64,000 nt of DNA from Escherichia phage vB_EcoM_PTE-Eco15: the sequence record PQ352352.2, one strand, 5' to 3'. Under the pieces are notes generated by a model. It did no database searches and had not been told where the DNA came from. It saw only the letters and a list, made by a program, of their open reading frames with translations. Each line of letters begins with the position of its first letter. Positions within the stretch are counted from its first letter, which is position 1. The position numbers and the translations under genes are program-made. Positions 27,916 to 31,354 of the stretch are shown here, piece by piece.

Positions 27916-28195
27916 ATACAAATCCGACTTTGATGTTAATATTCACCGCGGTACATTTTGGGGAAATTACGTCGGTAAAGATGCTGGCAGCCGGGAGGCT
28001 GCCATTGAATTATTCAAAAAAGATTTTATACGTCGAATTAAATCCGGAGAAATAACTAAAGCACATTTAGAGCCTTTACGTGGAATGAGGCTAGGATGCA
28101 CATGTAAACCAAAGCCGTGTCATGGTGATATAATAGCTCATATAGTTAACCGATTGTTTAAAGACGATTTTCAAGTTGAGGACTTATGCAATTAA
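27869..28195 (+). CDS. hypothetical basic protein with [11 protein letters not shown] motif (nrdA.x position); start uncertain
   Basis: 108-aa ORF overlapping both neighbours. Confidence 0.4.
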
Positions 28196-29619
28196 TTAAT
28201 GTTATCAAAAGTAGTGGTGTTTCTCAGAGCTTTGACCCGCAAAAAATTATTAAAGTTTTATCTTGGGCAGCTGAAGGAACATCAGTAGATCCTTATGAAT
28301 TATATGAAAATATTAAATCTTATCTCCGTGATGGAATGACAACTGATGATATTCAGACTATTGTCATTAAGGCTGCTGCGAATTCTATTTCGGTTGAAGA
28401 ACCTGATTATCAATATGTAGCTGCACGCTGTTTAATGTTTGCTCTTCGTAAGCATGTTTATGGGCAGTATGAACCACGTTCATTTATTGACCATATTTCT
28501 TACTGTGTAAATGAAGGTAAATACGACCCTGAATTATTGTCAAAATATTCAGCAGAAGAAATTACATTTTTAGAATCAAAAATTAAGCACGAGCGGGATA
28601 TGGAATTTACTTATTCCGGGGCGATGCAATTAAAAGAAAAATATCTAGTTAAAGATAAAACCACTGGTCAAATTTATGAAACTCCACAGTTTGCATTTAT
28701 GACTATTGGAATGGCACTGCATCAAGATGAACCTGTTGATAGACTAAAACACGTTATTCGTTTTTATGAAGCAGTATCTACTCGACAGATTTCATTACCA
28801 ACTCCTATTATGGCTGGATGCCGTACTCCGACTCGACAGTTTAGTTCATGCGTTGTTATTGAGGCAGGTGATTCGCTGAAGTCTATCAATAAGGCTTCTG
28901 CTTCAATTGTTGAATATATCTCTAAACGCGCTGGAATTGGAATTAACGTAGGTATGATTCGTGCTGAAGGTTCTAAGATTGGCATGGGTGAAGTACGCCA
29001 TACTGGTGTTATTCCTTTTTGGAAACATTTTCAGACTGCTGTTAAATCATGCTCACAGGGTGGAATTCGTGGCGGCGCTGCTACTGCTTATTATCCTATT
29101 TGGCATTTGGAAGTTGAAAATCTTCTCGTTTTGAAAAATAACAAAGGCGTAGAAGAAAACCGCATTCGTCATATGGATTATGGTGTTCAGCTGAATGATT
29201 TGATGATGGAACGATTCGGAAAGAACGATTATATTACTTTGTTCAGTCCGCATGAAATGGGTGGCGAGCTTTATTATTCTTATTTTAAAGACCAAGACCG
29301 TTTCCGTGAATTATACGAAGCAGCAGAAAAAGACCCTAATATTCGTAAAAAGCGTATTAAAGCCCGTGAACTGTTTGAATTGCTCATGACTGAACGTTCA
29401 GGAACAGCAAGGATTTATGTGCAGTTCATTGATAATACGAATAACTATACTCCGTTTATTCGTGAAAAGGCACCTATTCGTCAGAGTAACTTGTGTTGTG
29501 AAATTGCTATTCCAACAAATGATGTGAATAGCCAACAAACCCGTTTAATCAAAATTAAGAAGTCGGATGTAGCTAAGTTTTATGAAGCTAATCCTGGTGG
29601 TATAATTCAAAGCAAATAA
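28186..29619 (+). CDS. nrdA: ribonucleotide reductase large subunit, N-terminal piece (NrdA-a, 477 aa)
   Basis: ATP-cone and catalytic core through SNLCCEIAIPTNDVNS, then a 28-aa non-homologous tail and stop. Confidence 0.9.
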   Translation: MQLINVIKSSGVSQSFDPQKIIKVLSWAAEGTSVDPYELYENIKSYLRDGMTTDDIQTIVIKAAANSISVEEPDYQYVAARCLMFALRKHVYGQYEPRSFIDHISYCVNEGKYDPELLSKYSAEEITFLESKIKHERDMEFTYSGAMQLKEKYLVKDKTTGQIYETPQFAFMTIGMALHQDEPVDRLKHVIRFYEAVSTRQISLPTPIMAGCRTPTRQFSSCVVIEAGDSLKSINKASASIVEYISKRAGIGINVGMIRAEGSKIGMGEVRHTGVIPFWKHFQTAVKSCSQGGIRGGAATAYYPIWHLEVENLLVLKNNKGVEENRIRHMDYGVQLNDLMMERFGKNDYITLFSPHEMGGELYYSYFKDQDRFRELYEAAEKDPNIRKKRIKARELFELLMTERSGTARIYVQFIDNTNNYTPFIREKAPIRQSNLCCEIAIPTNDVNSQQTRLIKIKKSDVAKFYEANPGGIIQSK

Positions 29620-30375
29620 AGTACACAGACCGTTAATAAATAATCCATAACAAGAGGAAAAGTTATGGATTATTCTAAAATTTACAATAACCTTATTTCT
29701 AAAGCTAAGAACAGAAAATTAGATTGCTATACCGAATCACACCATATTATACCTCTGTGTATTGGTGGTTCTGATACAAAGGAAAACCTGGTAGATTTGA
29801 CACCAGAAGAGCATTACATAGCTCATCAATTATTAGTAAAGATATATCCAGATAATCATAAATTGATATTTGCCGCTAATATGATGTGTGTTTATTCTGA
29901 AGATAATATTGAACGAAAGAATACCAATAAACGCCATGGGTGGCTTAGAAGAAAATTGGCTATTTCTGTATCTGAAAATAATAAAGGCAAACCAGCTTGG
30001 AACAAAGGTATTCCTATGTCTCCAGAAGTTAAATCTCGACTTCAAACATCTTGGGTGTTTACATTTCCGGATGGTCATGAGGAAATTCATCGAGGTCTTA
30101 ACGAATTTTGTAAAGAGCATAATTTAAATCCATCTGCAATGTCAGCCGTTTGTAAAGGTAAACGGTCGCATCACAAAGGATTTAAGTGTAAGAAATTGGA
30201 TAAGATTTCAGAGCTTGATAATTTAGTTTTCGTCAGTAAACCTCATCCAAAGGGATTAAAACCCCATAACTTAATTGCTGTAAAAATAAACGGTATAGAA
30301 TATCAATCAATACATCGAGCATCTAAAGCTTTAGGAATTACTAGAAAAAAGGTAGAAGAATTAAATGAATATTGA
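29620..30375 (+). mobile_element. HNH endonuclease gene cassette inserted within nrdA
   Basis: interrupts an otherwise colinear nrdA reading frame between conserved NLCCEI and GLCTLSAF motifs. Confidence 0.75.
29665..30375 (+). CDS. HNH homing-endonuclease-like protein (Mob-type)
   Basis: 236 aa; HNH motif ESHHIIPLCIGGSDTKENLVDLTPEEHYIAH; C-terminal NUMOD-like DNA-binding repeats; RBS AAGAGGAAAAG. Confidence 0.85.
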   Translation: MDYSKIYNNLISKAKNRKLDCYTESHHIIPLCIGGSDTKENLVDLTPEEHYIAHQLLVKIYPDNHKLIFAANMMCVYSEDNIERKNTNKRHGWLRRKLAISVSENNKGKPAWNKGIPMSPEVKSRLQTSWVFTFPDGHEEIHRGLNEFCKEHNLNPSAMSAVCKGKRSHHKGFKCKKLDKISELDNLVFVSKPHPKGLKPHNLIAVKINGIEYQSIHRASKALGITRKKVEELNEY

Positions 30376-31354
30376 TTATGAATTTGTAGATGAATTTTAC
30401 GAAGATGATGAGTATACTACAATAGAAGTTATTGAAAACAAGGGAGAAGTGGGGCTTTGTACCCTTAGCGCATTTGTGTTGGATAACTTCGATTGGCAAG
30501 ACCAAGATAAAATTAATGAATTGGCAGAAGTTCAAGTTCGTGCTCTTGATAATCTTTTGGATTACCAAGGATATCCAGTTCCTGAAGCAGAAAAAGCTAA
30601 AAAGCGTCGTAATCTTGGCGTAGGTGTTACTAACTATGCAGCTTGGCTGGCAAGTAACTTTGCTTCTTATGAAGATGCTAACGATTTAACACATGAACTA
30701 TTTGAGAGATTACAGTATGGACTCATTAAAGCATCCATTAAGCTCGCCAAAGAAAAAGGACCTTGCGAATATTATTCAGACACTCGTTGGTCTCGAGGCG
30801 AATTACCTATCGACTGGTACAATAAAAAGATTGACCAAATCGCAGCTCCAAAATACGTTTGTGACTGGTCGTCGCTGCGGGAAGACCTTAAGCTCTTTGG
30901 CATCCGTAATAGCACATTATCAGCACTTATGCCATGTGAGTCATCTTCCCAAGTTTCTAACAGTACAAACGGTATCGAGCCTCCACGTGGACCAGTCTCT
31001 GTTAAAGAATCAAAAGAGGGCTCCTTTAATCAGGTCGTGCCCAATATTGAGCATAACATAGACCTTTATGATTATACATGGAAATTAGCTAAGAAAGGTA
31101 ATAAACCTTATCTTACGCAGGTAGCTATTATGCTGAAATGGGTATGTCAATCAGCTTCAGCGAATACATACTATGACCCGCAGATTTTTCCAAAAGGAAA
31201 GGTTCCAATGTCAATAATGATTGATGACCTTTTGTATTTTTGGTACTTTGGTGGAAAAAATTTCTATTATCATAATACCCGTGATGGTTCTGGTACTGAT
31301 GATTATGAAATAGAAACTCCAAAAGCTGAAGATTGTTCATCCTGTAAATTATGA
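30365..31354 (+). CDS. nrdA: ribonucleotide reductase large subunit, C-terminal piece (NrdA-b, 329 aa)
   Basis: 29-aa non-homologous leader then GLCTLSAF..., NSTLSALMPCESSSQVSNSTNGIEPP, C-terminal CSSCKL; start overlaps endonuclease stop by 11 nt. Confidence 0.85.
   Translation: MNIDYEFVDEFYEDDEYTTIEVIENKGEVGLCTLSAFVLDNFDWQDQDKINELAEVQVRALDNLLDYQGYPVPEAEKAKKRRNLGVGVTNYAAWLASNFASYEDANDLTHELFERLQYGLIKASIKLAKEKGPCEYYSDTRWSRGELPIDWYNKKIDQIAAPKYVCDWSSLREDLKLFGIRNSTLSALMPCESSSQVSNSTNGIEPPRGPVSVKESKEGSFNQVVPNIEHNIDLYDYTWKLAKKGNKPYLTQVAIMLKWVCQSASANTYYDPQIFPKGKVPMSIMIDDLLYFWYFGGKNFYYHNTRDGSGTDDYEIETPKAEDCSSCKL

Follow-up and report, generated by a model that had tools for sequence, protein, structure and literature searches.

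The genes-in-pieces ribonucleotide reductase (RNR) of Aeromonas phage Aeh1, in which the large-subunit gene is arranged as nrdA-a / mobE / nrdA-b, was reportedly described by Friedrich et al. in PNAS in 2007. In the Aeh1 locus, nrdA-A (473 amino acids, aa) is followed after a 46-nt spacer by mobE (237 aa), which overlaps nrdA-B (323 aa) by 14 nt. According to Crona et al. (2011, NAR; PMC3045599), the Aeh1 split enzyme is fully active, and the tails of its two fragments are retained on the mature separate proteins, as sequenced by mass spectrometry, the pI being 10.4 for the basic tail and 3.8 for the acidic one. The a/b heterodimer forms without the tails, whereas the (a/b)2 dimer of heterodimers requires them, and their removal lowers the activity by ~2000-fold (PMC3045599). 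At the time of that work, database searches with the Aeh1 tails gave no matches (PMC3045599). It has been found experimentally that a hairpin in early read-through transcripts blocks translation of Aeh1 mobE, while late transcripts starting in its 5' arm are translated, and the same promoter-hairpin arrangement has been described for I-TevI (PMC2988022). In the present study, a similarly divided nrdA was analysed in Escherichia phage vB_EcoM_PTE-Eco15 (PQ352352.2), within a stretch of 64,000 nt that is referred to as the window; all coordinates are window positions.

The window phage is a Tequatrovirus, its best matches in the phage record collection being ~96% identical over 25 kb. Its nrdA is divided into NrdA-a and NrdA-b by a 912-nt insert (29534-30445) that carries a gene for a 236-aa HNH endonuclease. 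Very probably, the Aeh1 mechanism has here been carried into a coliphage, with a reductase of two chains, an assembly that depends on the tails, an endonuclease made only late, and spread by homing. The features of the locus are as follows.

28186-29619, + strand: NrdA-a open reading frame (ORF), 477 aa
28186..29532, + strand: nrdA-a core, codons 1-449, with ATP-cone, all-alpha domain, and first barrel half; C222 and the N435-L-C437-C-E439 motif
29533..29619, + strand: cassette-encoded basic C-terminal tail of NrdA-a, QQTRLIKIKKSDVAKFYEANPGGIIQSK, net charge +4, and stop codon
29534..30445, + strand: whole mobile cassette, 912 nt without counterpart in uninterrupted nrdA
29635..29642, + strand: T4 late-promoter-like box, AATAAATA against the consensus TATAAATA, one mismatch; overlaps the hairpin 5' arm
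29639..29674, + strand: RNA hairpin, perfect 13 bp, with GAGG (29654-29657) in the loop and the HNH start codon (29665-29667) in the 3' arm
29665-30375, + strand: HNH ORF, 236 aa, MobE_split-type homing endonuclease
30015..30231, + strand: central variable module of the HNH gene (alignment columns 546-762)
30365-31354, + strand: NrdA-b ORF, 329 aa, overlapping the HNH ORF by 11 nt
30365..30451, + strand: cassette-encoded acidic N-terminal leader of NrdA-b, MNIDYEFVDEFYEDDEYTTIEVIENKGEV, net charge -10
30452..31354, + strand: nrdA-b core, second barrel half, with C32, Y301/Y302, and the C-terminal C324-x-x-C327
31406..32584, + strand: nrdB, small-subunit partner, intronless, 392 aa, 51 nt past nrdA-b

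Compared with the DNA of the uninterrupted nrdA of phage vB_EcoM_F1, the 912 nt stand in place of 8 nt. These boundaries were taken from pairwise BLAST; a MAFFT three-way alignment put the uninterrupted allele wrongly across the 912-nt gap. Residues 1-449 of NrdA-a are 99.8% identical to residues 1-449 of the vB_EcoM_F1 protein, and residues 27-329 of NrdA-b are >99% identical to its residues 452-754. Therefore, the two halves together make a whole NrdA, from which only Pro450-Asp451 are truly lost. What the cassette adds is a C-tail of 28 aa on NrdA-a and a leader of 29 aa on NrdA-b, whose final G-E-V aligns with the native A-E-I. Pfam assigns the ATP-cone, Ribonuc_red_lgN, and barrel positions 1-221 to NrdA-a, and barrel positions 219-523 to NrdA-b. 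The break comes after S449, in the loop between the active-site cysteines equivalent to C439 and C462, so that the catalytic C222, N435, C437, and E439 are held by NrdA-a and the catalytic C32, Y301/Y302, and C324/C327 by NrdA-b. The equivalence to C225, C439, and C462 of Escherichia coli follows Crona et al. 2011 (PMC3045599), where the Aeh1 counterparts of the split cysteines are C431 and C31. The cassette has a GC content of 32.0%, compared to 36.8-39.0% in its flanks.

A preliminary description of this stretch, made from its letters, had given the three ORFs at the coordinates above with the 11-nt overlap, and all were reproduced. It had also proposed that the HNH gene has its own ribosome-binding site (RBS) and lies between two active-site cysteine motifs; indeed a GAGG is found 7 nt before the ATG, and C437 and C32 fall on either side of the insertion. 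The statement that the halves add up to an intact NrdA is borne out by the match to vB_EcoM_F1, and the statement that T4 nrdA is uninterrupted was confirmed against the T4 locus. The two extensions have the lengths that it gave, but they are not unrelated sequences as it held, since both are homologous to the Aeh1 tails. Its suggested resemblance to Aeh1 mobE is upheld by the same loop, an endonuclease of 45% identity, and these homologous tails. Its proposal of an NrdA made of two polypeptides, each chain bearing part of the catalytic cysteines, agrees with all tests at the level of sequence, and the activity of such an enzyme would follow from Aeh1.

The locus and its Aeh1 counterpart have in common the same loop, an HNH protein of 236 (window) or 237 aa (Aeh1), a basic C-tail, an acidic N-leader, and an AT-rich insert. 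The spacer and overlap are 45 and 11 nt in the window versus 46 and 14 nt in Aeh1, and the halves of NrdA are 49-58% identical between the two phages. A late promoter and an inhibitory hairpin lie 5' of mobE in Aeh1, and a predicted late promoter and a hairpin of putatively the same role lie 5' of the HNH gene in the window. However, the window nrdA stays at the T4 position (td - nrdA - nrdB - denA), while that of Aeh1 is relocated outside the td-denA region. The window hairpin buries the AUG and has the Shine-Dalgarno sequence (SD) in its loop, but in the Aeh1 hairpin it is the SD that is paired; towards its end, the C-tail reads NPGGIIQSK in the window and ATDQYKSLRY in Aeh1. In addition, the biochemistry is known for the Aeh1 enzyme, and the window version from its genes.

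In T4 itself, MobE belongs to the same RNR operon and its N-terminal HNH nuclease domain is 45% identical to that of the window protein over 130 aa. It is, however, a protein of ~141 aa without the C-terminal ~100 aa, and its gene lies between nrdA and nrdB and overlaps the nrdA stop codon, so that no gene is split and no tails are added. T4 MobE is translationally coupled to nrdA and its target is nrdB (PMC2988022). The window HNH protein is not an orthologue of T4 MobE, only the nuclease domain being common to both; the corresponding intergenic position in the window is an empty 51-nt spacer. Another parallel is T4 mobA, a Mob-family HNH cassette that splits the gene of an essential enzyme, topoisomerase gene 39/60, and adds C- and N-terminal extensions of complementary charge, but the target gene and the extension sequences are different. 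The gene 39/60 split by mobA also has a 50-nt translational bypass element, which has no counterpart in the window. The fractured-nrdA split inteins of metagenomes (Dassa et al. 2009, PMC2677866) likewise have two nrdA ORFs with an endonuclease gene between them, and electrostatically complementary peptides that bring the halves together; they differ in that the halves are covalently ligated and the inteins excise themselves, while the Aeh1 homologue keeps its tails. A split intein was rejected for the window locus, since its tails of 28-29 aa lack intein blocks, a terminal Cys/Ser, and His-Asn, and the residues at the junctions read S|QQ and EV|G.

The HNH protein has an HH...N...H motif that begins at residue 26 and an I-HmuI NUMOD-like domain at residues 135-173 (Pfam), and PHROGs places it in a homing-endonuclease family (E = 7e-59). 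Residues H26, H27, N41, H50, and H54 show no variation in an alignment of homologues. Over its full length it is 45% identical to Aeh1 MobE (227 aa, E = 2e-57). In the reverse search with Aeh1 MobE against 50,697 phage records, the best full-length relatives were exactly the coliphage cassette proteins (45-48%), and the next-best were MobD-like genes adjoining uvsW, with ~31% identity; among cultured phages the match is thus reciprocal. Two alleles of the coliphage cassette exist, ~99% and ~91% identical to the window, and their difference is almost confined to 30015-30231. This allele-variable block has ~65-70% identity and covers residues ~117-190, around the NUMOD-like domain; phage F2 is a recombinant of both alleles that switches partway through it. 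The pattern looks like module exchange in the putative DNA-binding part of the HNH protein.

The two tails are homologous to those of Aeh1: LIKIKKSDVAKF in the window corresponds to LFKVKKSEVDKF in Aeh1, and YEDDEYTTIEV to YEDEEYTTVEI, with a longer tail alignment of RLIKIKKSDVAKF to MLFKVKKSEVDKF. Comparison of ten lineages shows conservation of L-[IVF]-K-[IV]-[KR]-K-x-[DE]-[IV]-x-x-F in the C-tail and of Y-E-[IF]-V-x-E-F-Y-E-D-[DE]-E-Y-T-T-[ILV]-[EQ]-[VI] in the leader, in which E-D-x-E-Y-T-T is invariant. Across the same lineages all C-tails have a positive net charge (+4 to +7) and all leaders a negative one (-7 to -14), each tail being complementary to its partner. The ratio of nonsynonymous to synonymous change (dN/dS) was compared with two relatives, phage PTE-Eco05 and metagenomic lineage L009; between the window and L009, where synonymous divergence is saturated throughout, the tail has a value of 0.19 and the leader one of 0.09, versus 0.14 and 0.09 for the NrdA cores. 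Since the tails are part of the NrdA fragments and not of the endonuclease, their conservation supports selection for a working split enzyme, and it is the best sequence evidence available for such selection. Crona et al. speculated that the tails are intein remnants (PMC3045599); no motif supports this origin. When re-fused scar alleles were sought with a peptide spanning the joined junction, 9 candidates gave only 2 fragments, in a word index that evidently missed even known relatives.

The 45-nt spacer between NrdA-a and the HNH gene appears to have a regulatory role. The HNH ATG is preceded by AAGAGGAAAAGTT, and the late-promoter-like box upstream of the gene is kept as (T)ATAAATA[GA]T in other lineages; its function as a late promoter is predicted from the precedents of Aeh1 mobE and I-TevI. 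The hairpin has a folding energy of -13.8 kcal/mol (z = -5.5), with an equally stable fold in 0 of 200 shuffled sequences, and equivalent hairpins in lineages L009, L011, and L014 and in Aeh1 have z values of -3.8 to -7.3. Over ten lineages, 81.7% of the cells are paired, compared to 29-45% when the 3' partner is slid, and four pairs are changed on both sides. Conservation of the hairpin thereby offers modest but consistent support for its proposed role. The RBS of NrdA-b is purine-rich and lies inside the 3' end of the HNH gene, being GAAG in the window and GAGG in several lineages.

Mobility of the cassette is seen in comparison with PTE-Eco05. In 100-nt bins, nrdA-a as well as nrdA-b has 67-87% identity between the two phages, while 29500-30400 is 97-100% identical; only 5 mismatches are found in 945 nt (29518-30462), with dense mismatches on either side. 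Thus the identity of the cassette with its tails reaches 99.5% in phages that share only ~78% (~22% divergence) in the nrdA around it. The proportions of synonymous differences between the window and PTE-Eco05 are as follows.

Cassette HNH gene: 0.014
Cassette C-tail: 0.06
NrdA cores: 0.68-0.73

Therefore, this near-identity within divergent nrdA genes indicates recent horizontal spread of the cassette as one unit, tails included. The shared flank that moved with it is at most ~16 nt on the left and 17 nt on the right; such short co-transferred flanks are the expected footprint of homing, with a putative cut near the insertion point. The presumed target of the endonuclease is uninterrupted nrdA around codons 449-452.

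In phage records, the cassette alone is found in 34 GenBank records (~27 distinct phages) of Tequatrovirus and Mosigvirus, out of ~839 nrdA-bearing records, and the whole region is found in 32 records at >=80% coverage. This patchy distribution, together with an element far more alike than its flanks, is the pattern of a homing endonuclease gene. Carriers include e11/2 (vB_EcoM_112), fPS-2, fPS-90, HY01, PEC04, UFV-AREG1, F2, ZQ3, and Mosigvirus AV111. The exact NrdA-a protein of the window is present on 20 contigs and in NCBI under several phage names. Since the same split structure is found in the 34 independent phage records, and the exact NrdA-a on those 20 contigs, it is not an assembly artefact. 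Beyond these records, a search of 5.8 billion proteins gave a graded series of full-length HNH homologues from 83% down to 50% identity, above the 45% of Aeh1 MobE, and for all nine metagenomic homologues that were looked up (50-67% identical), the surrounding nrdA is likewise split, at the same site and with the same ORF geometry.

In one of the metagenomic lineages, L010 (ERZ14207129 NODE_16, 607-2451), NrdA-a is 614 aa long and has an intein (PT-HINT, Intein_splicing) directly before the catalytic cysteine (...VHN|CLEIAIPT). This intein lies ~10 codons 5' of the MobE_split cassette, which places two mobile elements in one active-site segment. An extra ORF of 213-258 aa is present between nrdA-b and nrdB in L009 (4169-4810), L010 (4229-4993), and L014 (2219-2995), and that of L009 has a faint NUMOD3 match. 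The extra ORFs may be second endonucleases at the T4 mobE position, in which case the insertion sites would not be mutually exclusive.

The most probable scheme for the coliphage locus can be described as follows; its anatomy, the homology to Aeh1, the conserved tails and hairpin, and the recent horizontal transfer are seen in the sequences, while an active enzyme, what the tails do, expression late in infection, and homing driven by the endonuclease are taken from the Aeh1 experiments. A free-standing homing-endonuclease cassette of the Aeh1 MobE_split family is inserted in the loop between the barrel strands that bear the C439- and C462-equivalent cysteines. It is one mobile unit composed of 28 in-frame codons for the basic tail, a stop codon, the 45-nt spacer, the HNH gene, and a start codon, overlapping the 3' end of the HNH gene, with 29 codons that fuse the acidic leader to the downstream half. 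The two NrdA fragments would be translated separately and, together with NrdB, would most likely form an active reductase, (NrdA-a/NrdA-b)2 NrdB2, whose active site is composite. For productive assembly the tails of complementary charge would be needed, and because of this requirement the insertion would be close to phenotypically neutral. The endonuclease is probably restricted to the late phase of infection, being translated from transcripts with their start in the hairpin 5' arm, and the cassette has probably spread through cutting of uninterrupted nrdA alleles in mixed infections.

A continuous NrdA regained by RNA splicing, protein splicing, or translational bypass, with no two-chain enzyme at all, is extremely improbable. 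Such a route might be thought of since introns and inteins are frequent in RNR genes, the td group I intron lies in the same window, a metagenomic relative has the intein 10 codons 5' of the cassette, and a translational bypass exists in T4 gene 60 (bioRxiv 10.1101/2022.08.31.505936). However, an Rfam scan at E <= 1 detects no intron within 29500-30450, although it recognizes the positive control, the td intron 2.3 kb upstream, at 2e-8, and no intein domains are found by Pfam in the split-nrdA proteins. NrdA-a and the HNH ORF share a frame and are separated by two in-frame TAA codons, and the frame of NrdA-b is different; these stops and the frame change exclude an intein at the level of sequence, and intein motifs are absent. 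The halves are 745 nt apart, and the homologous Aeh1 tails were sequenced by mass spectrometry on mature separate proteins (PMC3045599).

The reading of a working two-chain enzyme spread by homing has to be weighed against several points. T4 nrdA is dispensable in nrd+ hosts, and because of this an inactive nrdA could persist for some time. For activity, stoichiometry, and timing of expression, the extrapolation is from Aeh1, where the halves of NrdA are only 49-58% identical to those of the window. The RBS of NrdA-b in the window phage is weak (GAAG, not GAGG), the covariation in the hairpin is modest with its four pairs, and the coliphage tails are almost invariant in DNA too, so that selection on these few codons is legible only in the deeper lineages. 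It is nevertheless quite unlikely that the insertion inactivated nrdA and left two ORFs as a tolerated pseudogene pair, with the host NrdAB giving deoxynucleoside triphosphates, even if T4 nrdA, non-essential in nrd+ hosts, is listed as 'auxiliary' in a table citing Miller et al. (PMC5931544), the halves are unannotated in some records (HY01), and truncated NrdA proteins of 352-356 aa are known in other T4-like phages. Both halves are intact with all catalytic residues in 10 of 10 lineages, including those in which the HNH protein is only 45-67% identical; the tails, which would have no role unless the fragments work, retain invariant motifs and a low dN/dS; and the homologous Aeh1 enzyme is fully active (PMC3045599). 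Somewhat less improbable, although still unlikely, is a cassette that is now transferred by general homologous recombination alone, without endonuclease cleavage, its HNH protein being inactive or domesticated for another role. Recombination among T4-like phages is very frequent, the short shared tracts beyond the insert (<=16 nt left, 17 nt right) alone do not prove cleavage-driven repair, and several T4 mob genes are without demonstrated activity (table, PMC2988022). Yet the H-H...N...H residues are invariant and the HNH ORF is uninterrupted in all 34 records and the 9 metagenomic lineages, identity drops sharply at exactly the cassette ends against a background of ~78%, which is a classic homing footprint, and the tight hairpin, predicted to allow late expression only, is conserved, which fits a nuclease that is still toxic.

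The coliphage arrangement is already known in that it has been deposited, annotated, and mentioned in a preprint. The preliminary description regarded it as unfamiliar in coliphages, which does not hold in view of the ~27 distinct deposited phages and the 2022 preprint with its MobE_split entries. In the records, two NrdA pieces and a homing endonuclease are annotated, and a note in the e11/2 record names MobE. The supplement of the preprint (bioRxiv 10.1101/2022.08.31.505936) lists MobE_split in HY01, F2, EcoM-ZQ3, and 'B. cereus' WP_100771429.1, and these entries are the same cassette, with 91-99% nucleotide identity to the window. According to the preprint, nrdA is the insertion place of MobE variants in 'Aeh1 and several others', where NTE and CTE are conserved; this is an unpublished remark with an alignment of the endonuclease only, and nothing on tails, regulation, distribution, or transfer. 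No publication analysing the coliphage split nrdA was found in the literature searched, and the Rephine.r paper is silent on nrdA. What is added here is the transfer of the cassette as one unit, the presence of 9 of 9 metagenomic homologues in a split nrdA, and the conservation of the tails in ten lineages.

It is established in Aeh1 that the gene of an essential-type enzyme can be broken within the active site by a selfish endonuclease that nevertheless persists, because it brings along its own means of reassembly. The coliphage copies show that the tails travel with the endonuclease as one unit, and they bring the system into T4-like E. coli phages, for which RNR assays, mutants, and crosses are everyday tools. 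The cassette is likely to be a self-contained split-and-repair element, in which an endonuclease is combined with a conserved pair of charge-complementary tags that reassemble any nrdA it cuts, so that an active-site loop of an important enzyme can be invaded at low cost, and which is now sweeping through Tequatrovirus and Mosigvirus coliphages; no formal publication of such an element sweeping coliphages was found in the literature searched. If this is true, a tractable E. coli/T4 system and ten natural tail variants are at hand for the function of the tags. The remaining interest lies in tails that are conserved throughout the family, in clean evidence for joint movement of the endonuclease and its tails as one unit, and in the availability of E. 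coli phages for dissection.

For annotation, two 'truncated' NrdA ORFs of this kind should not be labelled as pseudogenes or counted as a missing gene. In the HY01 record (KF925357.1) the endonuclease is annotated and both nrdA halves are without CDS features, and in the vB_EcoM-UFV13 paper (PMC5931544) nrdA is among the T4 genes 'not predicted', with no reason stated; annotation pipelines may under-call split nrdA. NCBI files identical or near-identical NrdA fragments and HNH proteins under Enterococcus faecalis, Bacillus cereus, E. coli, and Shigella sonnei. These bacterial-labelled copies are probably T4-like phage contigs in bacterial assemblies, or contamination. In Yersinia phage PYPS2T and Shigella phage SHFML-26, the annotated NrdA proteins have 352 and 356 aa, which suggests that nrdA is truncated or fragmented in T4-like phages in other ways too, unrelated to the cassette.

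Other mobile elements are found near the cassette. T4 has mobE and nrdB.1 between nrdA and nrdB, as well as a group I intron with I-TevIII inside nrdB, whereas the 51-nt spacer between nrdA-b and nrdB of the window has no mobE and its nrdB is without an intron; therefore, the mobile elements of this operon in the window phage are not those of T4. Upstream, the td gene (26459-27655) has a group I intron with a full-length I-TevI ORF of 245 aa, in which GIY-YIG, zinc finger, and DNA-binding domains are recognized. The Rfam match to Intron_gpI in td spans 27065-27295 with 42.5 bits, under the gathering score of 50, and the second td exon spans 27341-27655. As with the nrdA cassette, the td intron in its 3' part is 93-98% identical to PTE-Eco05, well above the surrounding DNA. 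Downstream, in 32588-34199, the gene order matches that of T4: a 144-aa GIY-YIG protein, listed with a GTG start and probably shorter in reality, is at the position of denA (endonuclease II), and its gene is followed by a 386-aa ORF at the position of rnlA.

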